From Heterodontus francisci (Eukaryota): a stretch of 64,000 bases of DNA. The notes below the pieces were generated by a model, which was not told where the DNA came from, ran no database searches, and was given only the letters and a program-made list of their open reading frames with translations. This document shows, piece after piece, positions 2,970 through 57,200 of the stretch. Where the stretch lies: positions 102,077,682 to 102,141,681 of the forward strand of contig NC_090374.1 in NCBI RefSeq assembly GCF_036365525.1. The letters are read 5' to 3'. The position numbers and the translations under genes were made by a program. Each line of letters starts with the position of its first letter. Position 1 is the stretch's first letter.

Positions 2970-5900
2970 ATTCATTCATGGGCTGTGGGCATCGCTGGCT
3001 AGGCCAGCATTTATTGCCCATCTCAAATTGCCCTTGAGAAGGTTATGGTGAGCTGCTTTCTTGAACCGCAGCAGTCATTGAGGTGCAGGTACACCCACAG
3101 TGTGGTTAAGAAGGGAGTTCCAGCATTTTGACCCAGCAACAGTGAAGGAACTGCGATATAGTTCCAAGTCAGGATGTTGTGTGGCTTGGAGGGGAACTTG
3201 CAGGTGGTGGTGTTCCCATGCACCTACTGGCATGGTCCTTCTTGATGGTAGAGGTCTCAGGTTTGGAAGGTGCTGTTGAAGCAGCTTTGCTGAGTTGCTG
3301 CAGTGCATCTTGTAGATGATACGCACAACTGCCACTGCTCGTCAGTGGTGGAGGGAGTGAATGTTGAAGGTGGTGCATGGGGTGCCAATCAAGCAGACAG
3401 CTTTGTCCTGAATGGTGTCGAGCTTCTTGAGTGTTGTTGGAGCTGCACTCATTCAGGTTGTGGAGAGTATTCTATCACCCTCCTGACTTGTGCCTTGCAG
3501 ATGCTGGACAGGCATTGGGGAGACAGGATGTGAGTTACTCGCTGCAGAATTCCAGCCTCTGACCTGCTCTAGTAGCCACAGTGTTTAGGTGGCTGGTCCA
3601 GTTCAGTTTCTAGTCAATGGTAGCCCCAAGATGTTGATAGTGGAAGCTTCAGTGATGGTAATGCCATTGAACATCAAGGGGAGATGGTTAGATTCCCACT
3701 TACTTGAGATGGTCATTGCCTGGCACTCGTGTGGCATGAAGGTCACTTGCCACCTGTCAGACCAAGCCTGGATGTTGTCCAGGTCTTGCTGCATCTGGAC
3801 AAGGGCAGCTTCAGTATCTGAGGAGTCGTGAATGGTGCTGAACACTGTGCAAGCATCAGCGAACATCCCCTCTTCTGACCTTATGATGTAGGGAAGGACA
3901 TTGATGAATCAGCTGAAGATGGTTGGGCCTAGGACACTAGCCTGAGGAACTCCTGCAATGATGTCCTGGGACTTAGATGATTGACCTCCAACTACCACAG
4001 CCATCTTCCTTTGGGCTAGGTATGACTCCAACTAGTGGAGAGTTTTTCCCCCTGATTCCCATTGACTCCATTTTTGCTAGGGCTCCTTGATGTCAAGAGC
4101 AGTCACTCTTACCTCACCTCTGGAGTTCAGCTCTTTTGTCCATGTTTGAACCAAGGCTGTAATGAGGCCAGAAGTTGAGTGGCCCTGGCGGAACCCAAAT
4201 TAGGTAGTGACAGCTTATTGCTGAGCAAATGCCGCTTGATAGCACTGTCAATGAGCCCTTCCATCACTTTGCTGATGATTGAGAGTAGACTAATGGTACG
4301 GTAATTGGCTGGGTTGGATATGTCCTGCTTTTGCGCACAGAACATATCTGGGCAATTTTCCACATTCGGGCAGATGTCAGTGTTGTAGCTTTACTGAAAC
4401 AACTTGGCTTGGAGCGCTGCTAGTTCTGGAGCACAAGTCTTCAGTACTATTGCCAGAATGTTGTCAGGGCCCATAGCCTTTGCAGTATCCAGGGCCTTCA
4501 GTCGTTTCTTGATATAACGTGGAGTGAATCGGATTGGCTGAAGACTAGCATCTGTGATGCTAGGAACCTCAGGAGAAGGCCGAGATGGAACATCCACTCA
4601 GCTCTTCTGGCTGAAAGTGGATGCAAATGCTTCAGCCTTGTCTTTTGCACTGATGTGCTGTGCTCCCCCATTTTGAGGATGGGGGTACTTGTGGAGACTC
4701 CTCCTCCTCCTGTTAGTTGTTCAAATGTCCACCACCATTCATGACTGGATGTGGCAGGACTGCAGAGCTTAGAAATGATCCGTTGGTTGTGGGATCGCTT
4801 AGCCCTGTCTATCGCATGCTGCTTGACACGCAAGAAGTCCTGTGTTGTAGCTTCACCAGGCTCACACCTCATTTTTAAGTATGCCTGGTGCTACTCCTGA
4901 CATGCCCTCCTAGACTCTTCATTGAACCAGTATTGGTCTCCCGAATTGATGGTAATGGTAGAGTGGGGGATATGTGGGGTTATGAGGATATAGATTGTGG
5001 TTGAATGCAGTTCTGCTGCTGCTGATGGCCCACAGCGCCTCATGGATGCCCAATTTTGAGTTGCTAGATCTGTTTGAAATCTATCCCATTTAGCATAGTG
5101 GTAGTGCCACACAACACGATGGTGAGTATCCTCAATGTGATGATGGGACTTCATCTCCACAAGGACTGTGTGATAGTCACTCCCACCAATACTGTCATGG
5201 ACAGATGTATCTGCGACAGGTAGATTAGTGAGGACCAGGTCAAGTAGGTTTTTCCCTCTTGTTAGTTCCCTCAACATCTGCCACAGACCCAGTCTAGCAG
5301 CCATGTCCTTTAGCACTCTGCCAGATCAGTCAGTAGTGGTGCTACTGAGCTACTTTTGCTGATGGACATTGAAGTCCCCCACCCAGAGTACATTCTGTGC
5401 CCTTGCTACCCACTCAGTGCTTCTTTCAATTGGTGTTCAACATGGAGAGTAACTGATTCATCAGCCGAGGGGGGCGGGAGGGGGGCGGTAGGTGATAATC
5501 AGCAGGAGTTTTCCTTACCCATATTTTTTCTGATGCCATGAGACTTCATGGGATCCGGAGTCAACGTTGAGGACTCCCAGGGCAACTCCCTCCTGAATGT
5601 ATACCACTGTGCTGCCACCTGTGGTGGGTCTGTCCTCCCGGTGAGACAGGACACATCAAGGGATGGTGATGTTGGTGTCTGGGACATTGTCTATAAGGTA
5701 TGATTCTGTGAGTATGACTATGTCAGGCTGTTGCTTGACTAGTCTGTGGGACAGCTCTCCCAATTCTGGTGCAAGCCCCCAGATGTTGGAAGGAAGATTT
5801 TTCAGGGTCAACAGGGTTGAGTTTGCCGTTGTCGTTTCCAGTGCCTGGGTCGATGCCAGGCCGTCCGTCTGGTTTCATTCCTTTTCTTAGACTTTGTAAT

Positions 5901-6221
5901 GGTTTGATACAGCTGAGTGGCTTGCTCGGCCATTTCAGAGGGCATTTAAGAGTCAACCACATTGCTGCAGGTCTGAAGTCACAGGTAGGCCACACCAGGT
6001 AAGGAGGCAGATTTCCTTCCCTAAAGGACATTGGTGAACCAGATGAGTTTTTATGACAATTGACAATGGTTTCATGGTCACCATTGGACTTACTTTTAAT
6101 TCAGATTTATTAATTGAATTAAAATTTCTGCCATAGTGGGATTCGAACACATCCCCAGAGCATTAACCTAGGCCTCTGGATTATTAGTCCAGTGATAATA
6201 CCACTATGCCAACGCCTCCCC
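2970..6221 (-). mobile_element. Near full-length decayed CR1-group LINE (second family; ORF2 only) with a tRNA-like 5' head
   Basis: APE motifs (NIWGL...PDIVILTESY near 5790-5700; LLDLVLTN; GSDY). RT motifs (KAMGPDNI, NPANYRTISLLSIISKVME, MFADA). Many stops and frameshifts. 3' tail ...GGCAATAAATGCTGGCC... near 2970-3030. Confidence 0.85.
6130..6221 (-). promoter_or_regulatory. tRNA-derived RNA Pol III internal promoter (A and B boxes) at the LINE 5' end
   Basis: Minus strand: A box TGGCATAGTGGT (6211-6200) and B box GTTCGAATCCC (6148-6138). Confidence 0.75.
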
Positions 6222-13147: not shown

Positions 13148-16039
13148 CTACACTATTCCATTTACATCCATATGTCTATCCAATGACCACTTAAATGCCC
13201 TTAAAGTTGGCGAGTCTACTACTGTTGCAGGCAGGGCGTTCCACGCCCCTACTACTCTCTGCGTAAAGAAACTACCTCTGACATCTGTCCTATATCTTTC
13301 ACCCCTCAACTTAAAGCTATGTCCCCTCGTGTTTGCCATCCTCATCCGAGGAAAAAGACTCTCACTATCCACCCTATCTAACCCTCTGATTATCTTGTAT
13401 GTCTCTATTAAGTCACCTCTCCTCCTCCTTCCCTCTAACGAAAACAACCCCAAGTCCCTCAGCCTTTCCTCGTAAGACCTTCCTTCCATACCAGGCAACA
13501 TCCTAGTAAATCTCCTCTGCACCCTTTCCAAAGCTTCGACATCCTTCCTATAATGCGGTGACCAGAACTGCACGCAATACTCCAGGTGCGGCCTCACCAG
13601 AGTTTTGTACAGCTGCATCATGACCTCGTGGCTCCGAAACTCGATCCCCCTACTAATAAAGGCTAACACACCATATGCCTTCTTAACAGCCCTATTAACC
13701 TGGGTAGCAACTTTCAGGGATTTATGTACCTGGATACCAAGATCTCTCTGCTCATCTACACTACCAAGAATCTTCCCATTAGCCCAGTACTCTGCATTGC
13801 TGTTACTCCTTCCAAAGTGAATCACCTCACACTTCTCCGCATTAAACTCCATTTGCCATCTCTCAGCCCAGCTCTGCAGCCTATCTATGTCCCTCTGTAC
13901 CCTACAACACCCTTCGACACTATCCACAACTCCACCGACCTTCGTGTCATCCGCAAATTTACTAACCCACCCTTCTACACCCTCATCCAGGTCATTTATA
14001 AAAATGACAAACAGCAGTGGCCCCAAAACAGAACCTTGCGGTACACCACTAGTAACTAAACTCCAGGATGAACATTTGCCATCAACCACCACCCTCTGTC
14101 TTCTTTCAGCTAGCCAATTTCTGATCCAAAGCTCTAAATCACCTTCAACCCCATACTTGCGTATTTTCTGCAATAGCCTACCGTGGGGAACCTTATCAAA
14201 CGCCTTACTGAAATCCATATACACCACATCCACGGCTTTACCCTCATCCACCTGTTTGGTCACCTTCTCGAAAAACTCAATAAGGTTTGTGAGGCACGAC
14301 CTACCTTTCACAAAACCGTGCTGACTATCGCAAATGAACTTATTCTTTTCAAGATGATTATAAATCCTGTCTCTTATAACCTTTTCCAACATTTTACCCA
14401 CAACCGAAGTAAGGCTCACAGGTCTATAATTACCAGGGCTGTCTCTACTCCCCTTCTTGAACAAGGGGACAACATTTGCTATCCTCCAGTCCTCCGGCAC
14501 TACTCCTGTCGACAATGACGACTTAAAGATCAACAACAACGGCTCTGCAATCTCCTCCCTGGCTTCCCAGAGAATCCTAGGATAAATCCCATCTGGCCCA
14601 GGGGACTTATCTATTTTCACTCTTTCCAAAATTGCTAACACCTCCTCCTTGTGAATCTCAATCCCATCTAGCCTAGTAGGCTGTATCTCAGTAATCCCCT
14701 CGGCAACATTTTCTTTTTCTACTGTAAATACTGACGAAAAATATTCATTTAATGCTTCCCCTATCTCCTCTGATTCCGCACACAACTTCCCACTACTATC
14801 CTTGATTGGCCCTGTTCTAACTCTTATCATTCGTTTATTCCTGATATACCTATAGAAAGCCTTAGGGTTTTCTTTGATCCTATCCGCCAATGACTTCTCG
14901 TGTCCTCTCCTTGCTCTTCTTAGCCCTCCCTTTAGATCCTTCCTGGCTAGCTTGTAACTCTCAAGCGCCCTAACTGAGCCTTCACGTCTCATCCTAACAT
15001 AAGCCGCCCTCTTCCTCTTGACAAGCGCTTCAACTTCTTGAGTAAACCACGGCTCCCTCGCTCGACAACTTCCTCCCTGCCTGACAGGTACATACTTATC
15101 AAGGACACGCATTAGCTGCTCCTTGAATAAGCTCCACATTTCGTTTGTGCCCATCCCCTGCAGTTTCCTTCCCCATCCTACACATCCTAAATCTTGCCTA
15201 ATTGCGTCATAATTTCCTTTCCCCCAGCTATAATTCTTGCCCTGCGGTATATACCTGTCCCTGCCCATCGCTAAGGTAAACCTAACCGAATTGTGATCAC
15301 TATCGCCAAAGTGCTCACCTACATCTAAATCGAACACCTGGCCGGGTTCATTACCCAGTACCAAATCCAATGTGGCATCGCCCCTGGTTGGCCTGTCCAC
15401 ATACTGTGTCAGAAAACCCTCCTGCACACACTGGACAAAAACAGACCCATCTAAAGTACTCGAACTATAGTATTTCCAGTCAATATTTGGAAAGTTAAAG
15501 TCCCCCATAACCACTACCCTGTTACTCTCGCTCCTGTCGAGAATCATCTTCGCTATCCTTTCCTCTACATCTCTGGAACTATTCGGAGGTCTATAGAAAA
15601 CTCCCAACAGGGTGACCTCTCCTCTCCTGTTTCTAACCTCGGCCCATACTACCTCAGTAGACGAGTCCTCAAACGTCCTTTCTGCCGCTGTAATACTTTC
15701 CTTGATTAACAATGCCACACCCCCCCCTCTTTTACCCTCTTCTCTGTTCTTACTGAAACATCTAAATCCCGGAACCTGCAACATCCATTCCTGCCCCTGC
15801 TCTACCCATGTCTCTGAAATGGCCACAACATCAGGATCCCAGGTACCAACCCATGCTGCAAGCTCACCCACCTTATTCCGGATGCTCCTGGCGTTGAAGT
15901 AGACACACTTTAAACCAAGTTCTTGCTTGCCAGTGCCCTCTTGCGTCCCTGTAACCTTATCCCCTACCTCACTACTCTCAACAGCCTGTACACTGGAACT
16001 ACAATTTAGGTTCCCATTCCCCTGCTGATTTAGTTTAAA
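13148..16039 (-). CDS. CR1 ORF2 (APE endonuclease + reverse transcriptase); frame is open back to the ORF1 overlap
   Basis: The 907-aa ORF 13148-15871 (GTG start) extends stop-free upstream to 16039 and includes LKCVYFNARSIRNK. Motifs [36 protein letters not shown]. Confidence 0.95.
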   Translation of the reverse strand, partial: FKLNQQGNGNLNCSSSVQAVESSEVGDKVTGTQEGTGKQELGLKCVYFNARSIRNKVGELAAWVGTWDPDVVAISETWVEQGQEWMLQVPGFRCFSKNREEGKRGGGVALLIKESITAAERTFEDSSTEVVWAEVRNRRGEVTLLGVFYRPPNSSRDVEERIAKMILDRSESNRVVVMGDFNFPNIDWKYYSSSTLDGSVFVQCVQEGFLTQYVDRPTRGDATLDLVLGNEPGQVFDLDVGEHFGDSDHNSVRFTLAMGRDRYIPQGKNYSWGKGNYDAIRQDLGCVGWGRKLQGMGTNEMWSLFKEQLMRVLDKYVPVRQGGSCRAREPWFTQEVEALVKRKRAAYVRMRREGSVRALESYKLARKDLKGGLRRARRGHEKSLADRIKENPKAFYRYIRNKRMIRVRTGPIKDSSGKLCAESEEIGEALNEYFSSVFTVEKENVAEGITEIQPTRLDGIEIHKEEVLAILERVKIDKSPGPDGIYPRILWEAREEIAEPLLLIFKSSLSTGVVPEDWRIANVVPLFKKGSRDSPGNYRPVSLTSVVGKMLEKVIRDRIYNHLEKNKFICDSQHGFVKGRSCLTNLIEFFEKVTKQVDEGKAVDVVYMDFSKAFDKVPHGRLLQKIRKYGVEGDLELWIRNWLAERRQRVVVDGKCSSWSLVTSGVPQGSVLGPLLFVIFINDLDEGVEGWVSKFADDTKVGGVVDSVEGCCRVQRDIDRLQSWAERWQMEFNAEKCEVIHFGRSNSNAEYWANGKILGSVDEQRDLGIQVHKSLKVATQVNRAVKKAYGVLAFISRGIEFRSHEVMMQLYKTLVRPHLEYCVQFWSPHYRKDVEALERVQRRFTRMLPGMEGRSYEERLRDLGLFSLEGRRRRGDLIETYKIIRGLDRVDSESLFPRMRMANTRGHSFKLRGERYRTDVRGSFFTQRVVGAWNALPATVVDSPTLRAFKWSLDRHMDVNGIV

Positions 16040-16965
16040 CCCCCCCGAAGAGCACTAACAAATCTCCCCCCCAGGATATTGGTACCCTTCTGGTTCAGGT
16101 GAAGACCATCCTGTTTGTAGAGGTCCCACCTACCCCAGAAAGAGCCCCAATTATCCAGGAAACCAAAACCCTCCCTCCTACACCATCCCTGCAGCCACGT
16201 GATCAACTCCTCTCTCTCCCTATTCCTCTCTTCGCTAGCACGTGGCACAGGCAACAACTCAGAGATAACAACTCTGGTTGTTCTCGCTCTAAGCTTCCAC
16301 CCTAGCTCCCTGAATTTCTGCCTTAAATCCCCATCTCTCTTCCTACCTATGTCGTTGGTGCCTATGTGGACCACGACTTGGGGGTGCTCCCCCTCCCCCT
16401 TAAGGATCCCAAAAACACGATCGGAGACATCACGTACCCTGGCACCTGGGAGGCAACACACCAACCGTGAGTCTCTCTCGTTCCCACAGAACCTCCTATC
16501 TGTTCCCCTAACTATGGAGTCCCCAATGACTAATGCTCTGCTCCTCTTCCCTTTTCCCTTCTGAGCAACAGGGACAGACTCTGTGCCAGAGACCTGCACC
16601 CCATTGCTTACCCCTGGTAAGTCGTCCCCCCCAACAGTATCCAAAACGGTATACCTGTTGTTGAGGGAAACGGCCACAGGGGATCCCTGCACTGCCTGCT
16701 GGTTCCCTTTCCTTCCCCTGACGGTAACCCATCTACCTACTTCTTTTACCTGAGGTGTGACTGCCTCCCTATAACTCCTGTCAATAATCCCCTCCGCCTC
16801 CCGAATGATCCGAAGTTCATCCAGCTCCAGCTCCAGTTCCCTAACGCGGTCTGCGAGGAGCTGGAGTTGGGTGCACTTCCCGCAGATGTAGTCAGCAGGG
16901 ACACTCTTGGCGACCCCTACCTCCCACATTCTGCAGGAGGAACATACAACTGCCTTTACCTCCAT
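16030..16965 (-). CDS. CR1 ORF1: zinc finger, coiled coil/leucine zipper and SGNH esterase
   Basis: ATG at 16965. CSSC...CGKC; LQLLADRVRELELELDEL; SGNH blocks GDSIVRG, LPGA, HIGTND, DGLHLN. Confidence 0.93.
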   Translation of the reverse strand: MEVKAVVCSSCRMWEVGVAKSVPADYICGKCTQLQLLADRVRELELELDELRIIREAEGIIDRSYREAVTPQVKEVGRWVTVRGRKGNQQAVQGSPVAVSLNNRYTVLDTVGGDDLPGVSNGVQVSGTESVPVAQKGKGKRSRALVIGDSIVRGTDRRFCGNERDSRLVCCLPGARVRDVSDRVFGILKGEGEHPQVVVHIGTNDIGRKRDGDLRQKFRELGWKLRARTTRVVISELLPVPRASEERNREREELITWLQGWCRREGFGFLDNWGSFWGRWDLYKQDGLHLNQKGTNILGGRFVSALRGGLN

Positions 16966-17168
16966 TCCCACTATTCTAGATTCCCAATAAATCTACTGAA
17001 AAACCAAACGAAAAAAAAAAAATTCAAAACTTGTTCGCTTAGCAATCCGACGGACTGAACTTTTTAAATAAAAAGCTTACCTTATCAACACACTAGAGTC
17101 CTTTTTTTTTTGGTTCGAGGAGGAGGGTGGGTGGGAGACACTACACGTGTAGTGTCTCGGGTACTGCC

Positions 17169-17423
17169 ACTGCCCAAATAAATAGTTTTCCCCTACCCAG
17201 CAGTCCCCGGTCCTCCGAAACAAAAAAGGGATTAACTTGTAACTTACTGAAATTGACCGCTCAGCTGAAAGTCCGCTCCGCACCTCGTTCTGTCAAGGCT
17301 GCTCCTCGCAAAAGACAAAGATTTTAAAACTGCCCAAATAAATAGTTTTCCCCTACCCAGCAGTCCCCGGTCCTCCGAAACAAAAAAGGGATTAACTTGT
17401 AACTTAAAAAAGGGATTAACTTG
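17169..17423. repeat. 78-bp direct repeat (17169-17246 and 17329-17406) plus a partial copy in the CR1 5' UTR
   Basis: ACTGCCCAAATAAATAG...GATTAACTTGTAACTTA occurs twice at a 160-bp period; AAAAAGGGATTAACTTG occurs again at the 5' junction. Confidence 0.9.
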
Positions 17424-18192
17424 TAAACTCTAGACAATAAAGGCCTAAACTGCTTAATCTCTCTTCATAAGACAAACCACTCATCTCTGGAATCAATCTC
17501 GTGAATCTCCTGTGAACTGCCTTCAATGCAGCTACATCCCTCCTCAAGTAAGGGGACCAAAACTGTACGCAATACTCCAGATGCGGTCTCACTAATACTT
17601 GTACAGTTGCAGCAACACTTCCATATTCTATTCCTTTAGCAATAAGTGCCAAAATTCCATTTGTCTTCCTTATTACCTACTGCACCTGCATGCTAATTTT
17701 CTGCGATTCATGCACAAAGACGCCCAGGTCCCTCTGCACCGAAGCACTCTGAAGTTTCTCCCCATTTAGATAATATTTTGCCTTTCTATTCTTCCGACCA
17801 AAATGGATAACCTCACACATAACCATGTTAAACTCCATCTGCCAAATTTTGGCCCATTCTCCTAACCTATCCATATCCATTTGTAAATTTCTTATTTCTT
17901 TATTGCAACTTACTGTCCCACCTATTTTAGTGTCATCTTCAAATTTGGCTATAGTACCTTCTATCCCTGCATCCAAGTCATTTATATAGATTGTAAATAG
18001 TTGGGGCCCGAAGACCAAACCCTGTGGCACCCCACTAGTTACATCTTGCCAACCAGAAAAGGACCCATTTATCCCGACTCTCTGTTTTCTGTTGGTTAGC
18101 CAATCCTCTATCCAAGCTAATAAATTGCCCCGAACCCCATGTGATCTTACCTTGTGTATTAACCTTTAGTGCGGCACCTTATCAAATGCCTT
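17424..18192 (-). mobile_element. Old CR1 (host), segment 2 of 3
   Basis: PQGLVFGPQLFTIYINDL, KFEDDTK, VRPHLEYCVQFWSP. Confidence 0.85.
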
Positions 18193-21100: not shown

Positions 21101-23042
21101 GGATGAAGCCCGTCTGGACCCGGGGACATGTCAGCCCGCAGCTCCATCAGTTTGCTCAGTACCGCTTCCCTGGTGATTGTAATTTCCCCAAGTTCCTCTC
21201 TTCCTTCCACCTCCTGACTTATAGCTATTGCCAGAATGTTTTTTGTACCCTCAATAGTGAAGACAGAAGCAAAATATTTGTTAATTTCATCTGCCATTTC
21301 CTTATTATCTACTATTTTCTCCCCAACCTCACTCTCTAGAGGACCAGCACTCACTTTACTTCCTCTTTTCTTTTTTAAATACCTGTAGAAACTTTTGCTA
21401 TCCGCTTTTACATTTCTAGCTAGCTTCCTCTCATACTCTAATTTATTTCTCCTGGTTAACCTTTTAGTCATTCTCTGCTGTTCTTTATATTCTGACCAAT
21501 TATTTGAACTACGACTCATCTTTGCGCAATTATATGCCTTATCCTTAAGTTTTATGCTTTCCTTAACTTTTTTAGTTTACCACATATGGTGGGTCCTTCC
21601 CTTAGAATTTTCCTTTGTAGTAGAAATATACTTATTCTGAGTATTTTGAAATCTCCCCTTAAATGTCTGCCACTGCTTCTCTATTGATCTATCTCCGATC
21701 CTAGTAACCCAGTTCACATCAGCTAGCTCAGCTTTCATGCCCACATAGTTGCCCCTATTCAAGTTTAAAATACTAGTCTGAGACCCACTCTTTTCTTTCA
21801 AACTGGATGTAAAATTCAATCATTTTGTTGTCGCTGCTACCTAGAGGTGCCTTTACTCTGAGGTCATTAATTAATCCTGTCACATTACACAATACCAAGT
21901 CTAATACAACCTACTCTCTGGTTGGTTCCAGAATGTGCTGCTCTAAGAAACTATCTCAAAAGCATTCTATGAACTCCTCTTCCAGGCTACTATTGCCAAT
22001 CTGATTTTTCCAGTTTATATGTCGATTAAAATCACCCATGATTATTGCCATCCCTTTATCACAAACACCTAATATTTCTTCTTGTATACTTCGTCCTACA
22101 TTGTGATTACTGTTCAGGGGCCTGTAGACCACTCCCACTAGTGACATCTTTCTCCTACTATTCTTCATCTCCACCCAAACCGTTTCTACATCCTGATGGC
22201 CTGAACCAGGATCATCTCTAACTATTGCACCAAGCCATTCTTGATTAACAGTGCTACCCCTCCACCTTTACCTAGCTTCCTATTCTTCTTGAACCTCACA
22301 TGCCCCTCAGTATTCAGGACCCAATCTTTGTCATCCTGCAGCTTCTGTAATGGCGAGCAGATCATATTTATTTACTTCAATGTGTGTCCTCAATTCATCT
22401 ACTTTTTTATGAATGCTTTGTGCATTCAAATACAGAGCCTTTAGTTTTGTCTTTTTGTTATCTTTGTAACATCTAGTCTTGACTGTTGGTGTGTATTAGG
22501 TTTTTTCTCTCTGACCCTTCCTGCCATTCTCTGACCTTCATTTCCCATATTACTATTCTGCTCTCCTGCCTTGACTCGACTCCTTAATTTGCTACATCTA
22601 ACCAAGCTTAATCCCTCTCCCCTCTTGTTTAGTTTAAAGCCCTCTCTACTTCCCTAGTTATACGGTTTGCTAGAACACTGGTACCAGTTCATATGCAGAG
22701 CGCCCCAACGGTACAGCCCCCACTTTCCCCAGTACTGGTGCCAGTGCCTGACAAACCGAAAGCCACTTCTCCCACACCAGTGTTTTGAGCCACGTATTCA
22801 TTTCACTAATCTTATATGCCTTCTGTCAATTGGCATGTGGCTCAGGTAATAATCCAGAGATTATTACCCTTGAGGTTCTGCTCTTCAATTTGGTGCCTAG
22901 TTCCTCATACTGTCTAAGTAGAACCTCTTTCCTAGTCCTACCTATGTCATTGGTACCTACGTGGACCACGACAACTGTATCTTCCCCCTCCCACTCCAAA
23001 TTCATGTCCAGCCCTGAGCAGATGTCCCAGACCCTGGCACCG
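21092..23042 (-). mobile_element. Decayed CR1 fragment spanning the ORF1 esterase C-terminus, the ORF1/ORF2 junction and the endonuclease
   Basis: VVVHVGTNDIG at about 22940-22970; ERALN* at 22629-22646; VYRPLNS, IMGDFN, SPGPDGLHPRVL. Confidence 0.85.
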
Positions 23043-26708: not shown

Positions 26709-27831
26709 ATGGAGGATGCTATAATATGCCATGAAAAATAACATCAAGGGTTTTCACCTCATCTGTTCAAAAAATATGATTTTTTACAGCCCTGGATATG
26801 AAATATATTTATAGTGGAGGGGATCCCACATTTTGAAAGTCTTCCTTCAAGTGAGTAGTAATAAAAAATCATGATGCTGTCGACATTCATATTAAAACCA
26901 AAGTAGAACCAAGAATCCCAACAATCCTTTCTGGTACACAATACAAAATGTGTATTAAACTGTGCTTTCAAATATTGGTTCCACTAAGCTACAAAACACT
27001 AGTTTGGCAATGAACTCGAAAAAATATGGCATTCTTTGAATAAGCAATTAAGTCCTTGTGTCAACAATTTTTAATATAGTGGCCAAATAGCTTGATGGGG
27101 ATGGGTGGCGATGTTTGAAATTAAAATATTACTTTATAGTTCTAGGATATGCTTCAGAATTTGACTTATTCTGTGAGATTTGCTATTCATCTGAGTGGTA
27201 TAGATTTAAATAATTTCTTGTCATTTAGAAACAAATATTTGGAGTGGAAATTGCATTTCATGTGGCCTTGCTTAAGGTTTCAAAATGTCTATTTAGAACT
27301 GAATGAGTCTTAGTATAATATATATGAATTCCTTCCCTGTATGACTGTAGAACTATGAAGTTACCATTTATAACAATAAGCTGCTGAGCTGTGTCTGTCA
27401 TGAGTTTCTTTGTGTTATCTTAAGCAACACATTGAGGTATGTGGATTCCAGTTCCTTGAAAATCTCTAGTAGGTTTATTAACAGCTAAACTGGTACAATA
27501 CAATATAGAGCAAGCTATATACAGAACTTTTGTCCAGGCTGTTACAGTGCAGAGTGACGAAAGCTTCTAGTCAAATGACTACATCCTGGTACTTAGCTCA
27601 TTAGCATATTGAGTTCTTAAAGGGATCATACGACATTGAAGCATTTTTCATTAGGAAAACAGGAAGAATGCTGAACTTTGATGTGGGAGTATGCTGAACA
27701 GTCCAGGTCTTGTAGAAATGGTTCTTGCCCTCCCCCTGGATTACTCTTTGTACTGCTGTCTGAATGTTAATAATAGCATCTGGCTCTTAACCATGGAGCT
27801 TCAGTCTTTGACAAGTTCACCTCCTTTTTTA

Positions 27832-28809
27832 TATGATTGCTGCTTTAACATCTCACACTGAAGAGTGCCTGCAGAGTCTCATCGACAGGTTTGCGGCTGC
27901 CTGCAATGAATTTGGCCTAACCATCAGCCTCAAGAAAACGAACATCATGGGGCAGGACGTCAGAAATGCTCCATCCATTAATATTGGCAACCACGCTCTG
28001 GAAGTGGTTCAAGAATTCACCTACCTAGGCTCAACTATCACCAGTAACCTGTCTCTAGATGCAGAAATCAACAAGCGCATGTCCAGACTGGCCAAGAGAG
28101 TGTGGGAAAATGGTGCACTGACAGGGAACACAAAAGTCCAAGTGTATCAAGCCTGTATCCTCAGTACCTTGCTCTATGGCAGCGAGACCTGGACAACGTA
28201 TGTCAGCCAAGAGCGACGTCTCAATTCATTCCATCTTCGCTGCCTCCGGAGAATCCTTGGCATCAAGGTGGCAGGACCGTATCTCCAACACAGAAGTCCT
28301 CGAGGCGGCCAACATCCCCAGCTTATACACACTACTGAGTCAGCGGCGCTTGAGATGGCTTGGCCATGTGAGCCGCATGGAAGATGGCAGGATCCCCAAA
28401 GACACATTGTACAGCGAGCTCGCCACTGGTATCAGACCCACCGGCCGTCCATGTCTCCGCTTTAAAGACGTCTGCAAACGCGACATGAAGTCCTGTGACA
28501 TTGATCACAAGTCGTGGGAGTCAGTTGCCAGCGTTCGCCAGAGCTGGCGGGCAGCCATAAAGGTGGGGCTAAAGTGTGGCGAGTTGAAGAGACTTAGCAG
28601 TTGGCAGGAAAAAAGACAGAGGCGCAAGGGAAGAGCCAACTGTGTAACAGCCCCGACAAACAACTTTTTCTGCAGCACCTGTGGAAGAGCCTGTCACTCT
28701 AGAATTGGCCTTTATAGGCACTCCAGGTGCTGCTCCACACACCACTGACCACCTCCAGGCGCTTACCCATTGTCTCTCGAGATAAGGAGGCCAAAGAAGA
28801 AGAGAAGAC
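27832..28809 (+). mobile_element. 5'-truncated RTE-clade LINE
   Basis: FGLTISLKKT, FTYLGS, LLYGSETWT, RLRWLGHVSRMEDGRIPK, C-terminal CSTCGRACHSRIGLYRH zinc finger, (GAA)n-like tail. Confidence 0.92.
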
Positions 28810-39070: not shown

Positions 39071-42000
39071 AGAACAAAGAACAAAGAACAGTACAGCACA
39101 GGAACAGGCCATCCAGCCCTCCAAGCCTGCGCCGATCTTGATGCCTGCCGAAACTAACACCTTCTGTACTTCCAGGGCCCATATCCCTCTATTCCCTACC
39201 TATTCATATATTTGCCAAGATGGCTCTTAAACGTCGCTATCGTATCTGCTTCCACCACCTCCCCTGGCACTCACCACCCTCTGTGTAAAAAACTTGCCTC
39301 GCACATCCCCTCTAAACTTTGCCCCTTGCACCTTAAACCTATGTCCCCTAGTAACTAACTCTTCCACCCTGGGAAAAAGCTTCTGACTATCCACTCTGTC
39401 CATGCCGCTCATAACTTTGTAAACCTCTATCATGTCGCCCCTCCACCTCCGTCGTTCCAGTGAAAACAATCCGAGATTTTCCAACGTCTCCTCATAGCTA
39501 ATGCCCTCCAGACCAGGCAACATCCTGGTAAACCTCCTCTGTACCCTCTCCAAAGCCTCCACGTCCTTCAGGTAGTGTGGCGACCAGAATTGCACGCAAT
39601 ATTCTAAGTGTGGCCTAACTAAGGTTCTGTACAGCTGCAACATGACTTGCCAATTTTTATACTCTATGCCACCTGCGTTGCCACTTTCAGTGATCTCTCT
39701 GCCTGTCAATACTCCTAAGGGTTCTGCCATTTACCTCCCACCTGCATTAGACCTTCCAAAATGCATTACCTCACATTTGTCCGGATTAAACTCCATCTGC
39801 CGTTTCTCCGCCCAAGTCTCCAACCGATCTATATCCTGCTGTATCCTCTGACAATCCTCACCACTATCTGCAACTCCACCAACCTTTGTGTCGTCTGCAA
39901 ACTTACGAGTCAGACCAGCTACATTTTCCTCCAAAATCATTTATATATACTACAAACAGCAAAGATCCCAGCACTGATCCCTGCGGAACACCATTAGTCA
40001 CATCCGTCCATTCAGAAAAACACCCATCCATTGTTACCCTCTGTCTTCTGTGACTGAACCAGTTCTGTATCCATCCTGCCAGCTCACCTCTGATCCCATG
40101 TGACTTCACCTTTTGTACCAGTCTGCCATGCGGGACCTTGTCAAAGGCTTTACTAAAGTCCAAATAGACAACATCCACCGCCCTTTCCTCATCAATCATC
40201 TTCGTCACTTCCTCAAAAAACTCAATCAAATTAGTAAGACACGACCTCCCCTTCACAAAACCATGCTGTCTCTCGCTAATAAGTTTGTTTGTTTCCAAAT
40301 GGGAGTAAATCCTGTCCCGAATAATCCTCTCCAATAGTTTCCCTACCACTGATGTAAGGCTCACCGGCCTATAATTTCCTGGATTATCCTTACCACCCTT
40401 CTTAAACAAAGGAACAACATTGGCTATTCTCCAGTCCTCTGGGACCTCACCTGTAGCCAATGAGGATGCAAAGATTTCTGTCAAGGCCCCAGCAATTTCT
40501 TCCCTTGCCTCCCTCAGTATTCTAGGGTAGATCCCATCAGGCCCTGGGGACTTATCTACCTTAATGCTTTGCAAGACACTCAACACCTCCTCCTTTTTGA
40601 TAATGAGATGACTGAGACTATCTGCACTCCCTTCCCTCGGCTTATCATCCACCAAGTCCTACTCCTTGGTGAATACTGATGTAAAGTACTCATTTCGCAC
40701 CTCACCCATTTCCTCTGGCTCCACGCATAGATTCCCATCTCTGTCCTTGAGTGGGCCAACCCTTTCCCTGGTTACCCTCTTGGTCTTTATATATGTATAA
40801 AAAGCCTTGGGATTTTCCTTAATCCTGTTTGCCAATGACTTTTCATGACCCCTTTTAGCCCTCCTAACTCCTTGCTTAAGTTCCTTCCTACTGTCGTTAT
40901 ATTCCTCAAGTGTTTCATCTGTTCCTCGCCTTCCAGCCCTTACAAATGCTTCCTTTTTCTTTTTGACTAGGCTCACAATATCCCGTGTTATCCAAGCTTC
41001 CCGAAACTTGCCAAACTTGTCTTTCTTCCTCACAGGAACATGCTGGTCCTGGATTCTAATCAGCTGACGTTTGAAAGACTCCCACATGTCAGCTGTTGAT
41101 TTACCCTCAAACAGCCGCCCCCAATCTAAATTCTTCAGTTCCTGCCTAATATTGTTATAATTAGCCTTCCCCCAATTTAGCACCTTCACCCGAGGACTAC
41201 TCTTATCCTTATCCACAAGTACCTTAAAACTTATGAAATTATGATCACTGCTCCCGAAATCTCCCCCACTGAAACTTCGACCACCTGGCCGGGCTCATTC
41301 TCCAATACCAGGTCCAGAATGGCCCCATCCCTAGTAGGACTATCTACATACTGTTTCAAGAAGCCCTCCTGGATGCTCCTCACAAATTCTGCCCCATCCA
41401 AGCCCCTAGCACTAAGTCCCAGTCAATATTGGGGAAGTTAAAATCACCCACTACTACAAACCTGTTACCTTTACATCTTTCCAAAATCTGTCTACATATC
41501 TGCTCCTCTACCTCCCGCTGGCTGTTGGGAGGCCTGTAGTAAACCCCCAACATCGTGACTGCACCCTTCCTATTCCTGAGCTCCACCCATATTGCCTCGC
41601 TGCATGACCTCTCTGAGGTGTGCTCCCGCAGTACAGCTGTGATATTCTCCTTAACCAGTAATGTAACTCCCCCACCCTTTTTACATCCCCCTCTATCCCG
41701 CCTGAAGCTTCTAAAGCCTGGAACATTTAGCTGCCAATCCTGCCCTTCCCTCAACCAAGTCTCTGTAATAGCAACAACATCATATTTCCAAGTACTAATC
41801 CAAGCTCTAAGTTCATCTGCCTTACCTGTTATACTTCTCACATTGAAACAAATGCACTTCAGACCACCAGTCCCGCTGTGCTCAGCAACATCTCCCTGCC
41901 TGCTCTTCCTCTTAGTCCTACTGGCCTTATTTACTATGTCCTCCTCATTTACTTCACTAGCTGTCCTACTGCTCTGGTTCCCACCCCCCTGCCACACTAG

Positions 42001-42385
42001 TTTAAACCCTCCCGAGTGACGCTAGCAAATCTTGCAGCCAGGATATTAGTGCCCCTCCAGTTTAGATGCAACCCGTCCTTCTTGTACAGGTCCCATCTGT
42101 CCCTGAAGAGAGCCCAATGGTCCAGATATCTGAAACCCTCCCATCGACACCAGCTGCTCAGCCACGTGTTTCTATTTCTAGCCTCACTGGCACGTGGCAC
42201 AGGGAGTAATCCAGAGATTACAACCCTAGAGGTCCTGTTTTTTAACTTACTACCTAACTCCCTAAACTCCCCCTGCAGGACCTCATCACTCTTCCTGCCT
42301 ATGTCATTGGTACCGATGTGTACCACAGCCTCTGGCTGTTCACCCTCCCCCTTCAGAATGCCCTCTGTCCGTTCAGAGACATCCT
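39071..42385 (-). mobile_element. CR1 LINE, 5'-truncated within ORF1, with disrupted ORF2
   Basis: ORF1 esterase (HIGTND, DGLHLN...EGLN*), ORF2 pieces at 41997-39227, (TTCTTTG)n tail. Confidence 0.93.
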
Positions 42386-42406
42386 GTATACCTACATTCT
42401 GTCACA

Positions 42407-49227: not shown

Positions 49228-50655
49228 ATGATGGGACAACAGCAGCAATGAGTATCAACCATTCTTGTTAAGTTGTGGGAATACCTGGGTGTTAGGTGGA
49301 CCTGGGAAGAATCCGGGCTTTTGTAGTCATGATGGAATTGGTGCCCCAGTGGGGCCCAGAGGACTCACTCATCAAAATAGTCATAGAAAAGCTAAAGAAC
49401 ATCAATGAGAAAACGGTTAAAGACGGGTCGGATCTGGAGTCTGAACCAGTCGAACAGAAGGAGTGGTGGCAAGGACAGAAAAAGGATAAAGATGATAAGG
49501 CAGTTATCATAGTAGTTAACAGGTATTCTAAGGTACTCAAAACGAGTCCAGGAAAAGGTTAAAGAACTTGACTTAAGGTGCAAGGACCTGGAATCTAAGT
49601 GCGATACTTTGAAGGACCAGTTAAGTAGACGAGGATTAGGAACAATGGGGAATGATGGCAAGGAAGGATTGGTACCACCCCCTTCGTACGGAGAAGTGTC
49701 CCAACCTCCTCCACTAGCACCCGTGGAGGACCACGGGCATGGCCTGGCGGACACGGTTCCACTTGCCTATGCACGAACTCCCCTGGACGGGGACAAATGC
49801 GGGTCTCATACACACCATTTACGGCAAGTGATAAGCAATTGATCCTTAAGGACCTCCCAACGTTGAAGCCAAAACATGGCAATGCCGAGTTCTGGCGGAA
49901 GTTGGAGAAAATGATTGACATCCACGGGATGCATGGTCGGGACATTCACATGTTGGTAAGGGCAAAGTGTCCTCAAGAACGTTGGACTAAAATGCCGGAT
50001 CAAATCCTGAATGCGCACTGGATCCCGGGTCTGGGGGATACGGCAGCAGAACAACGAACCGCTTTTTACCCATTTAAGCAGGATATGCAAAATACAATGG
50101 GTCTGATCCCGTGTAATTGGGGAGCGATTACCTTGATCAGGCAAAAGAAGGGAGAGTCATTGATTGAATACAGGGACCAGTTGTGGACTGCCTACCAGGA
50201 GTATTCGAGTCAGGTTTATCCAGTCAAGACCAACCCCACATTCCTTAAAATGTTTAAGGAAGGGCTAAGTTCGGATCACCAGGCAGTCCTGAAGACCGGC
50301 CTGATGATTTCGCAGACTTGCGAGGACTTGATTAACTGGGTGAGTCAGGTAGACACACACAAGCTGGGGGAGGTGTCAGTAGTAGTGGACACTTTTCAGA
50401 AAGGAAACAGGCAGTCTGAAAATGCAGCCCCGAAAGGTGAGTGTTGAAGTGCGCAACTGCCGAGCCCCGAGGGAAGGGGACAAAAGGATAACGTGCAGTA
50501 GCTGTCATAAGGCTGGACATACTAAGGCAGGTTACTGGTCCAAAGGCAGAGGGAAAGAAGGTAAGGAACCAAAGCAACAGGGAAAAGCTAAGCCAATAGA
50601 CCAGAATAAGCAACAACAGCTCCTCCAGTTGGTGAAGGCACTAATAGACGAATAG
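49228..50655 (+). pseudogene. gag: ERV gag (frameshifted)
   Basis: MMGQQ start, PPPSY late-domain-like motif, MHR-like RQKKGESLIEYRDQL, decayed knuckle CSSCHKAGH. Confidence 0.75.
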
Positions 50656-52290
50656 GTAGCCTCAGCCCCCGGGACAAATCGGGAGGAAGACCCCAGGATC
50701 CACATAGTAGTGGTGTTAGGGGACCGGCATTGTGAAATTCTAGTGGACAGGGGCCACAGTTTCGATGACTGACTTATATTTGTGGGACGGTTAGATGGGG
50801 CTGAATCCGCCCAAGTGGCAGAATTAGTCGCTGTCACGGAGGCCCTGAGATATGCAGAAGGAATGAGACTAAGCGTGTACACCGAAAGTAGGTATGCCTT
50901 CGGGGTAGTGCACGATTATATGGGGCCTTGGGAGAGATGGGGCTTTAATACCTCATCGGGACTGCCTATTAAACATGAGCAGATAATACGGAATCTTACT
51001 GAAGCAGCCAGGTTACTGAAGGAGGCATCGGTTGTTAAGGTAAAAGCTTATTGGAAGGTAGTTAACAAAATTCAGGAGGGGAACCGAAGAGCGGACCAGG
51101 AGGCAAAGAAAGCCGCTGACTCCGAGCTGAAGGTAAGCGCTGCACTAAATAACGCGGAAGGCAATGACATCAGCATACCGCTCCTACACGCTGACATGCC
51201 GGAGGCGGAGAAGATGATGTAGGAGAAAAAGGGGCCAGATGGTAACTGGTGGTATGATGAGAGGGAGGTGGCGCTGGAATGCATCCACAGAATGCTACAG
51301 AATCCACAGAACCTGCACCATGGGCCCAGTCACTCGGGAAGGGAATCTATGATGCACTCCCTTGTCTGGGATTGGTGGTGGCCAGGAATGGGGTGAGACA
51401 TAGCAAAATACTGCCAGCAGTGTGTGACGTGCACTTAGTACAACACCAGGAAGCCACTCAAGGTCAAGTAGTCACACCAGCCTCGGCCGAGGGGTCCCTG
51501 GGAGAATGTACAGATAGACTTTACGGGACCCCTACCACCGAATAGGGGGAAATCATACTGTCTGGTACTCATAAACTAATTCACACAATGGATGGATGCC
51601 TTCCCAACCCAGGACTGCACTGCCACTATCGTGGCACGAATAATGGTCGAGGAGGTCATCCCCAGGTGGGGAGTGCTGGTGCAACTGGGCTCTGATCAGG
51701 GGAGCCACTTCACAGGAAGGATCAGTAAGGAATCCCGTAAACTGTTCGGTATCAAGCAGAGATTCTAATCCCTACTACCCCCAGAGCTCAGGAATGGTGG
51801 AGTGTATGAACAGGACCCTAAAGACAGCCCTAGCAAAAGCCTTCAAGGTGATCGGGCAGGCACAGGCAGACCTGCTGCCAACGGTCCTGATGAGGTTGCA
51901 GGCGACCCCCAGTTGGACTACAGGACTTACACCCTATGAGTTAATGACGGGGAGAGCCATGCGGCTCCCCGAGACTATCATCACGGGAGGACAGGATTTG
52001 GGACCGTTGAGGGAGATATGTGATATGTGAGGGAACTCTGTAAACAATTGAAAGATCTTAGGCAGGAGGCTAGAGATCAGCAGCAGGCAAAGGATCAGGA
52101 GCTAGAGCCGGAGGTGTGGGACATTCCTGAGGTAGGGGACATGGTAATGGTTAGGAACTACCCCAGAAGCCGGGGTTCACCCCACGTTAGATGCGGCCTT
52201 GCCCAATAATTATGACTCGTAACACCTGTGTGTGTGTGGAAATGAAAGGCAAAGGCCGATGGAAACATTGGACTCAATTAAAATGCGCTA
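50656..52290 (+). pseudogene. pol: ERV pol remnant: protease start, RNase H and integrase
   Basis: ILVDRG; SAQVAELVAVTEAL...YTESRYAFG...EGNRRADQEAK; H..H...WWPG...CQQCVTC; QIDFTGPLP, SDQGSHFTG, PQSSGMVECMNRTLK. Confidence 0.85.
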
Positions 52291-54228: not shown

Positions 54229-57200
54229 GGCATGAATTTCCTGAGCTGTCGGAAACTTGTGAGGGTCAACAAGGTGAGAGCACCGTGGGGATCCATTACT
54301 GTGTGAAATTGACAGGCTGGAAAGCCTTTAAAGACTGAAACTGTATAGCTGCTTCTCTGTCTATGTGAAAGACTTATGCTCACAGAACTTGTTCTGACAG
54401 TGTGCTTTCACTACTTTACAGGTGATTTCCAACTTTTTGGAAGATGTTTCAACTATCTTGGACTTTGTTGACTTTGATCTACAGTTCTCTGCTGTCAGTC
54501 TGATGAGGAACAAGAGGGGAAGCAGAAGGTGCATCAGAAGCAACACCAACGGCAGCAGCAGCTGCCTTCTCCTCAGCGACATGCTGCTCCACAGGACAGA
54601 GGGGATGGACACAGACATCCAGCTCGAAGGAGGCGAAACCCCCAGCACAGGTCTCTAGTCGAAGGATCAGCTTTCTCCATGATGGAGCAAAAGTATCTCA
54701 GGAGGCTCAGGTTTTCACAACAGATTGTTTCTGACATCTGTAGCCTCCTGGAACAAGTGGAACAAGACCTCTTTCTCAGTGGGCCAGGCGGACAGACACT
54801 GTCAATGGCTGACAAGGTCACCATAGCCTGAATTTCATTGTATCCAACTCCTTCCAGGCATCTGCTGGTGATTCACTATCTGCTGCCCACAAGTGTACCT
54901 GCCAGGTGACCAATGCCATGTTTGCCAAGGATGCTACTTACCTCCACTTTGATACTGATGAGTCTAGTGGGACACAGAGGGCTCTTGTATTTGCTGCAGT
55001 GGCTGGATTCCCACAAGTTCAGGGAGTCATTGACTGCATACATATGGTAATCAAGGCATCCTCAGATCATTCAGGGCTATTTTTCAGTCGAAAGGGATTC
55101 CCCTCCTTCAATGTTCAGCTATTAAATGACCATCAAAATGTTGTCATGCATGTCTGTGCAAGATATCCTAGAAGCTGCCGTGATGCCTTCATTCTGTGTC
55201 AGTCATGTGTCCCACAGGTCTTTGTACCTTTGAGCTGAATCAGCAGGTGGCTTCTTGGAGACAAGGGCCACCCTCTAAGGAGGCACATGACACCCATGAG
55301 GAGCCCTACCACTGATGCAGAGGAAAGATACAATTGGAGTCACCTGAGCACAAGAATTATCATTGAGCAAGCCATTGGGTCGTTGAAGATGTGATTCAGG
55401 TGCCTAGACAGATCTGGGGGCGCTCTTCAGTATGCACCAGTAATAATAGAGAATGATAGTGGTCTGCTGAGACTTGCACAACATTGTGCTGCAGAGAGGA
55501 CTGGAGCTGCAGGAGGAGGAAGGTACAGATCATTCTGCAGCCACTGATGAGGAAGAGCCTGATGTGGCAGCCACTCACCTAGCTGCCAGAGAAGCCTGTG
55601 ACGCGTTCATACAGGCATGCTTCAGATAATCTGAGTGTGTAAAGCCGTATGGCACAGCAAAGCTGAACCCACTGCCCCCACCACACCCCACCAAAACACA
55701 AATCATTCTCACAGTCAGAAATCCCTCCATCTCATTGACACCCTTTACTCATCTTCCACTCAGGTCATGGCATTTTCCTGAAGACTTATGTCCACTTGGA
55801 AGGTGAAAGGCAACAATGGAAATGATTAAACTATGGAAAATGCGTGATTCATTTACCCTTTGCAATACATTAACATACTGACATTTTTATAATCACCCAG
55901 GTGAATCCATGTGCAACTAAAAAGCCTTTCTTTTCCTTTTCCTATTATTTCTATGTACTACCACACCTGTGACTGCAGCACAAGTAGAGGCAGGCTGCTT
56001 ATTACCCTGCTCTAACAGCTAACATTCCTATGGCAATGTCCTCTGGGTTTTGGAGCCAAACACTGCCCCACCTACACCTGTGCAGGGGCAGACTCGGTCA
56101 TCGGGGGAGGAGACAGTATGTGGTGCTCTGACTGGGGGTGGGGGGGGGGGGTGGGTGGTGGGATGTTGGTGGGGGTTCAAGGAATGAGAAATGGGAGCGC
56201 CTTGAGCAGAGCCCCCACTTCCATGTGCTCTTTCTCCATCTTCCCTCTCATGGACCATCTGCATTTCACTGCTAGCCAAGAGCTGGAGAGCACTTCACTG
56301 CATGTCAGTGAGGTGCTGAATGGTCAAGGTGAAGCTTTCCTCCATCTTACTTAAAATGTCAGATTGAGTGTGTAGGTCATTGGTCAGGGCAAGCATGCAC
56401 TTGGTTGCCTGCTGCATCTGATTGTCCTTGCAGGTGGCCACTCTTTCCATGGACATCAGCACAAATACCTGAGACATCATGGCATTCATGGTCTAGACAA
56501 TCTCCTCCAGTCTCTCTCCAAGGGTATGCAGTGCCTTTGGAAAGGCTGACAGAACCTCACACATTTCCCATTGCTGCTTCAGAACAGCCCTGTTCCTGCA
56601 TAACCCACAAGACTCAGCATCTGTGTCTAGTTGAGAGGAGCTTGGACTGTTCTGCACACTCTGACAGGGACTCTCCACTGTTGTCCCTGTCTATAACACC
56701 TGCTCCTGCTCACTTGTGATATGCAGCTGCAGCTCACCATGTGACAACCTAGCTATCTCCTTTGGAGTCCCCACTGAGGTGTGTGTATATCTGTGCTAGT
56801 GGAGGATCCATATGAATCTTGTGACAGTGCTCCCTCAGAGTGCACAACCTCCTGTGAGGACACCTTAGCCTCCTCATGCTCCAGATCCTGTGAAACACTT
56901 GAACGATATGTGGGAGAAGAAATACATGAATTAGAAATGGCATGGAGAAAGGGTAAAAAGTCATCATTGTGCAGATGTTCTCATTTCAGTAAGTGATGAG
57001 AGCAAATAGACATTAATCATTGTTATGTGCTACGTGACAGTGTGATTTCTAATTCTATCACCAGTTCTCTGGGAAACCCCAATGGCCAAGCACTGTGCCA
57101 CCCTGCCATTATCCAAGGCCTCCTCCTCTGCAGTAGTCAGGGTGGCTATCATTGGAGGGCCACCCCCAGTTCTCTGCCTCTTCCTAGAGTTCTACACTCT

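Follow-up and report, generated by a model that had tools for sequence, protein, structure and literature searches.

A conserved slippery heptamer at the ORF1/ORF2 junction of vertebrate CR1 LINEs points to -1 programmed ribosomal frameshifting

In vertebrate CR1 LINEs, translation of ORF2 most likely depends on -1 programmed ribosomal frameshifting (-1 PRF), which, judging from the sequence of their junctions, would yield an ORF1-ORF2 fusion of ~1,270 aa. A slippery heptamer, its phase, a -1 overlap, an upstream -1 stop, a missing AUG and codon-level conservation were all read directly from the DNA. The junction in question belongs to element B (42 kb) of a 64,000-nucleotide stretch of Heterodontus francisci DNA, hereafter the window. 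Its DNA was compared with that of element A (16 kb), element C (22.6 kb) and L001, a metagenome contig.

Architecture of the junctions

Element B, a 5'-truncated CR1 with a broken ORF2, occupies about 39,071-42,401 on the minus strand, and this copy is dead. Its parts are listed below.

41997..42401, minus strand: 3' part of ORF1 (SGNH esterase), 5'-truncated, ending ...REGLN*, recognised by PF13472 and by likeness to element A
42022..42024, minus strand: -1-frame stop position, with five open -1-frame codons upstream of the heptamer, as in 4 of 4 elements
42009-42003, minus strand: overlapping G_GGU_UUA, present only in elements A and B
42000..42006, minus strand: slippery heptamer U_UUA_AAC, in the phase of ORF1
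41997..41999, minus strand: ORF1 stop TAG, abutting the 3' end of the heptamer
41976..41989, minus strand: G-rich element GGGGGGTGGGAACC, +11 to +24 past the heptamer, coding for Gly-x-Gly in the -1 frame
41851..41975, minus strand: variable -1-frame linker without AUG
39071..41850, minus strand: ORF2 (endonuclease and reverse transcriptase, interrupted by multiple frameshifts and stop codons) and, past it, the 3' UTR

A preliminary description had read the end of ORF1 as GAG GGT TTA AAC TAG, with the heptamer TTTAAAC at 42006-42000, and this was borne out on the minus strand, where the heptamer has the X_XXY_YYZ phase relative to ORF1. The ORF1 remnant shows 67% identity over 135 aa with its counterpart in element A and contains the SGNH esterase domain (PF13472, E 6e-10). 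In the -1 frame the sequence reads FKLVWQGGGN...LKCICFNVRSI. As the same description had claimed, no ATG precedes the endonuclease motifs: counted along the stop-to-stop frame, no Met comes before residue 157, and the first in-frame ATG of ORF2 lies at about 41553. Its statement that the linker peptides diverge strongly was also confirmed, just 11 of 35 residues being identical between A and B.

The corresponding features of the two other elements in the window are as follows.

16030..16992, minus strand: ORF1 of element A, intact: an esterase with a Cys-rich N-terminus, a Met at about 16965 and the 3' end GGT TTA AAC TAA
16039-16033, minus strand: heptamer of element A
13148..16039, minus strand: ORF2 of element A, intact, in the -1 frame, 963 codons counted from the heptamer
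22629..22638, minus strand: junction of the decayed element C, GCT TTA AAC TAA (heptamer 22638-22632), then a G-run at +10

The ORF1 of element A carries PF13472, its esterase matches PDB 4C1B (E 4e-42), and its best named relatives are found in sharks and rays (Mustelus, 78%). The ORF2 carries PF03372 and PF00078 and can be aligned with the L1 endonuclease; its first ATG, at about 15784, lies 10 residues past the Glu aligned with E43 of that enzyme, a residue which we take to be catalytic. TTCT-type repeats rather than poly(A) close the 3' ends of A and B. By the esterase ORF1, the endonuclease-reverse transcriptase ORF2, the 3' repeats and the likeness to published CR1 junctions, both are assigned to the CR1 clade. 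In the 5' UTR of element A (17169-17426), two identical 78-nt copies lie 160 nt apart and a 21-nt unit occurs three times.

Element C, absent from the preliminary description, belongs to a more divergent subfamily, and further CR1 pieces are nested downstream of its junction. L001 has an ORF1 35% identical to that of A and a junction reading CAT TTA AAC TAG, with ORF2 at -1. It was the sole useful CR1 locus among 15 fetched, the other 14 being distant esterases or bacterial matches; the eight of these that were inspected (L002-L009) showed no such junction. Plasmid and phage collections gave no match.

In each of the four elements ORF2 occupies the -1 frame, which a stop closes six codons upstream of the heptamer. 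For A, B and L001, no ORF2-frame ATG was found ahead of the first endonuclease motif, including any overlapping or near the ORF1 stop, and there is no near-cognate start common to the three; the linker of the decayed element C does hold ATGs. A linker Met before the endonuclease motif was also seen in 5 of 14 ORF2 homologues (P0127, P0128, P0130, P0132 and P0133), at varying positions, as chance would probably produce in a free linker 35-90 residues long. The UAAUG motif is absent from these junctions. The motif for 2A ribosome skipping is D(V/I)ExNPGP near the ORF2 N-terminus, and no NPGP was seen by eye in the translations of A and B.

LINE fragments crowd the window. At 3714-6150 (minus strand) there is a LINE whose 5' region is close, by eye, to the Zenon consensus rows CarCar_Zenon-1 and SquAca_Zenon in the part of the published table covered; a tRNA-like GTTCGAATCCC stands at its head, and ARAGORN found no tRNA gene in the window. 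The 3' part of a reverse transcriptase-like ORF at 27812-28748 (plus strand; no Pfam match in 27812-28465) presumably resembles an RTE-clade LINE, and a 5'-truncated CR1 ORF2 follows it directly at about 29000. Broken gag/pol pieces of an LTR retroelement or retrovirus-like element occupy 49656-52030 (plus strand), with an RNase H at 50773-51222 (PF00075, E 5e-15), and a DDE_Tnp_4 (Harbinger-type) nuclease fragment lies at 54813-55238 (plus strand, E 1e-5).

Nucleotide conservation at the heptamer

With up to one mismatch, GGGTTTAAACTA matched the window three times against 0.31 expected, a count reached in 0 of 100 shuffles, and all three matches are ORF1/ORF2 junctions. Ungapped comparison of A with B gave 12 of 13 identical nucleotides over the GGG, heptamer and stop and 12 of 14 over +11 to +24, then 11 of 30 and 8 of 30 in the following stretches. 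The string T TTA AAC TAR occurs in all four DNA junctions, down to 35% ORF1 identity, and the longest invariant run in a four-way alignment of 180 columns is TTTAAACTA.

Codon comparisons support conservation at the nucleotide level. T|TTA|AAC is constant in the four elements while the residue before Leu varies (Gly, Gly, Ala, His). Upstream, the invariant residues D-G-L-H-L differ in the third position at 5 of 5 codons across A, B and L001. Identical four-fold sites number 10/23 for A-B, 10/33 for A-L001 and 4/17 for B-L001 (24-43%), and identical Leu codons 3/12, 3/16 and 3/11, respectively; flanking synonymous sites, with only 30-45% identity, are largely saturated. Third positions also match at codons -4, -5 and -9, as well as at three codons beyond these on the 5' side, so that agreement at a single site means little. 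Conservation is higher at the heptamer than at flanking synonymous sites in this small sample of four DNA junctions plus consensus rows, and the earlier suggestion of nucleotide-level constraint is supported for the heptamer. Selection acted on active master elements, not on the dead copy B.

A similar block appeared when contigs from four runs were placed on the window at 80% likeness, a pile-up whose depth is a sign of alignability, not of copy number. Contigs of all four runs lay deep over about 41976-42023 and collapsed in the linker; in run X18 depth was 829,589 at 41992-42007 versus 367 at 41928-41943. Loose contig ends cluster at 41976 and 42013-42015 and mark a shared block with unlike flanks. 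Among the 40 of 96 differences that were listed, none fell in 41996-42014, and 42055-42092 was equally free.

At the protein level, 54 of 57 CR1-group ORF1 proteins with a recognisable natural end finish in LN, the exceptions being TIN, ALNY and RTIF. Entries from sharks, rays, Latimeria, Xenopus, Paramormyrops, Ranitomeya and two turtles are among those that end in LN, while 12 more distant esterases (fish) end differently, e.g. in RTI or DKT. The four database proteins that cross the junction (P0037, P0079, P0086 and P0121) all have the -1 peptide FKL with Gly at position 7. Three CR1 proteins, P0007, P0129 and P0076, come from records of Pseudomonas aeruginosa, Carnobacterium maltaromaticum and a flatworm parasite, which were probably contaminated with host DNA. 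Five shark or ray gene models (P0036, P0075, P0077, P0121 and P0134) are partly or largely CR1 sequence and bear the host-gene names RPS24, TMEM204, HAO2 and MINPP1b isoforms.

Published junctions were sought in supplementary table 2 of PMC13343379 by pattern-led searches covering 400 nt from the start of every row, several of the consensus rows being gappy or of low confidence. In this part of the table TTTAAACTA gave 23 matches, 17 of them at ORF1 ends and 6 elsewhere, as judged by eye. The 17 ORF1 ends belong to rows AldAff, AllMis, AmiCal, AquCat, CalMil, CroPor, HypSab, LatCha, PriPec, ScyCan and SquAca (including SquAca_CR1-6c), so labelled in the table, and T TTA AAC TAR consensus junctions are found in sharks, rays, chimaera, bony fishes, coelacanth, frog and crocodilians. 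The junctions sampled at the DNA level include no bird, turtle, squamate or mammal. We take the row prefixes to denote, in the order given, halosaur fish, alligator, bowfin, bullfrog, elephant shark, crocodile, stingray, coelacanth, sawfish, catshark and dogfish.

Five parts of the table were inspected whole: an ORF1 end is visible in 7 of their 66 CR1 rows, and the heptamer is present in 7 of 7. An independent upstream anchor found five rows, four with the heptamer and one that ends before the heptamer position. A search for synonymous alternatives to the heptamer, which left out Leu variants combined with AAT or TGA, gave none at an ORF1 end among the matches listed (17 of 17, 23 of 32 and 16 of 16) in the same table extract. 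By eye, the junctions of the window elements are close to ScyCan_CR1-1a and PriPec_CR1-7. Rows SquAca_CR1-18 and SquAca_CR1-3 contain a second GGTTTAAACTA in the 5' UTR, upstream of the ORF1 start. Row AldAff_Crack-2 appears by eye to have an esterase-like ORF1 end and a CR1 heptamer junction, and may be a mislabelled CR1. The conserved junction is real, beyond chance and general across the sampled jawed-vertebrate CR1 elements.

Downstream context and the route to ORF2

The G-rich motif was less uniform than the heptamer. The preliminary description had reported GCAGGGG...TGGGAACC as kept between subfamilies; the full motif is indeed common to A and B, and C and L001 share only the G-run at +10/+11. 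A G-run begins at +10/+11 in all four elements; in the part of the table covered, roughly 11 of the 17 consensus junctions have one, by eye, that begins at +7 to +11. The proposal that selection acts on this 3' motif found only partial support: the G-run is widely kept, TGGGAACC is confined to close elasmobranch subfamilies. The element is a candidate unstructured stimulator, although the G-run also encodes Gly-x-Gly in the -1 frame.

Structure prediction covered nested folds and duplexes, not pseudoknots as such. No 3' fold beat shuffled sequences (z -0.9 to +1.8), the consensus fold of the junctions contained 0 pairs, and no long-range pairing partner was common to the elements. By these nested folds and duplexes there is no counterpart to the pseudoknot or stem-loop that stands 5-9 nt downstream in the canonical -1 PRF cassette. 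A two-tier G-quadruplex was rejected as a shared stimulator, being predicted in B only (1 of 4).

Several other routes could connect such a junction with ORF2. Ribosomes might terminate and reinitiate, or initiate independently of AUG, near the ORF1 stop, giving a free ORF2p, with the conserved bases serving as stop context or reinitiation signal. We consider this unlikely, although the route is known in other LINEs, having been proposed for L1 and shown for SART1 (PMC3708506 and PMC5009743, each in part). The ORF1 stop does adjoin the motif, and some linkers contain a Met, but those of A, B and L001 have neither AUG nor a shared near-cognate codon. A and B do contain UGGGA, which forms the core of the calicivirus reinitiation signal, but this motif stands on the 3' side of the stop instead of the 5' side and is missing in L001. 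Reinitiation also leaves unexplained why an X_XXY_YYZ heptamer stands in phase and why ORF2 is always at -1. Less probable still is a slip driven by slow termination, in which the stop would occupy the A site and the P-site tRNA-Asn would move from AAC to AAA, making the same fusion by a different step. This would agree with the failure to find a 3' structure and with the TAR stop that comes after the heptamer at all four DNA junctions and at 17 consensus junctions of the table extract (where the search term required TA), but it requires A_AAC alone, and U_UUA is invariant too.

It is very improbable that no recoding occurs and that Leu-Asn is simply required at the ORF1p C-terminus, its codons matching by common descent or codon bias. 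LN is nearly invariant at the amino-acid level, and all these elements have a common ancestor. The codon counts, however, largely refute such an amino-acid constraint: TTA is rare, making up 10 of 73 Leu codons in the three ORF1s (A, B and L001) and 16 of 75 in the ORF2 of A; synonymous identity between elements is 24-43%; and the wobble T is constant under Gly, Ala and His. Moreover, LN is missing from related esterases, and ORF2 would be left without a start. We give almost no credence to splicing or polymerase slippage as the source of ORF2. A run of seven G just upstream in element A might favour polymerase slippage, but B, C and L001 lack it, and by eye the junction shows no pyrimidine-rich splice acceptor.

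Under -1 frameshifting, the majority of ribosomes would translate ORF1 to ...Leu-Asn and stop at UAA or UAG, releasing the esterase ORF1p. A small share would slip one base back on U_UUA_AAC, tRNA-Leu moving from UUA to UUU and tRNA-Asn from AAC to AAA, and would then bypass the stop and cross the variable linker into the endonuclease and reverse transcriptase. The predicted product is a minor Gag-Pol-like ORF1p-ORF2p fusion (311 + 961 in element A) alongside abundant ORF1p. The adjacent stop and the G-run 10-11 nt downstream probably assist, via a pause or a bound protein and not a pseudoknot. Slippage itself, the fusion protein and how much of it is made, as well as whatever the G-run contributes, are inferred from the junction sequences. 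X_XXY_YYZ in the zero-frame phase, a -1 ORF without a usable start of its own (3 of 4 junctions, among them the intact one) and, in this small sample, conserved synonymous positions at the shift site are features that these junctions share with canonical sites. The junction would seem to work like a -1 PRF site; because the canonical 3' structure is absent, we do not file it as a canonical pseudoknot-stimulated cassette, and slippage may be low without a stimulatory structure.

Relation to known systems and implications

The arrangement resembles coronavirus -1 PRF (IBV in the part of PMC5009743 covered) and retroviral or LTR gag-pol, with which it shares the phase, a short -1 overlap, a polymerase downstream and, by prediction, a minor fusion product. 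The coronavirus U_UUA_AAC heptamer is identical to that of CR1, and in the same part of PMC5009743 (Atkins 2016) it ranks with the heptamers on which mammalian ribosomes shift most readily. Unlike those sites, CR1 is a non-LTR element in which no stem-loop or pseudoknot was found, the stop abuts the heptamer and a G-run follows at +10/+11. A further parallel is PRRSV, in which nsp1beta/PCBP acts on CCCANCUCC, a motif that follows the shift site at 11 nt (PMC5009743, in part): CR1 likewise has a short unstructured motif at a similar distance (10-11 nt). The PRRSV motif is C-rich, whereas that of CR1 is G-rich and a putative stimulator.

Other LINEs (L1, SART1, Ingi, invertebrate CR1 and HeT-A) face the same problem of a downstream ORF on one non-LTR RNA, and LINE ORF2 translation is called unclear in the part of PMC3708506 covered. 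Routes described elsewhere are AUG-independent initiation in L1, UAAUG coupling in SART1 and 2A skipping in Ingi and invertebrate CR1 (PMC3708506 and PMC5009743, in part); none of these elements, nor HeT-A, has in those texts a heptamer between ORF1 and ORF2. HeT-A shifts frame within gag and encodes no reverse transcriptase (PMC5009743, in part). Canonical vertebrate CR1 (PMC13343379, in part; the ZfL2-1 esterase, PDB 4C1B) has the same esterase ORF1 and endonuclease-reverse transcriptase ORF2.

The main text of PMC13343379, a 2026 survey of CR1, contains none of the terms 'frameshift', 'overlap', 'slippery' and 'start codon'. The word 'frameshift' is absent from PMC3905857, PMC4120745 and PMC3708506 and has unrelated uses in PMC11835228, PMC1965478 and PMC6609765. 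In the first 300,000 of the 449,034 characters of PMC5009743 'CR1' does not occur, and the non-LTR elements mentioned are HeT-A, TART and L1 only. No report of CR1 frameshifting was found in the literature searched, the scope of which did not extend to the CR1 papers of the 1990s. Those on chicken and turtle CR1 (Haas et al.; Kajikawa et al.) reportedly describe closely spaced or overlapping ORFs and possibly suggested frameshifting.

Among the retrotransposons of most vertebrates CR1-group elements predominate, and in sharks and rays they make up 22-34% of the genome (PMC13343379, in part). We offer only tentatively, as a rather doubtful extension, that across jawed vertebrates the CR1 reverse transcriptase is made solely as a fusion via the invariant U_UUA_AAC, with a new kind of stimulator that replaces the RNA fold (the abutting stop plus a G-rich motif, 10-11 nt downstream, bound by a host protein or by ORF1p) and has been kept since the split of sharks and bony vertebrates.

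If ORF2 is indeed reached by frameshifting, CR1 ORF2p would be a fusion bearing the esterase and its RNA- or membrane-binding parts, and annotating ORF2 from its first Met would cut off catalytic endonuclease residues. Assays of CR1 would then require the native junction, which offers a natural frameshift site without an evident RNA fold. The conserved viral-type slip site makes the translation of CR1 ORF2 sharply and cheaply testable.
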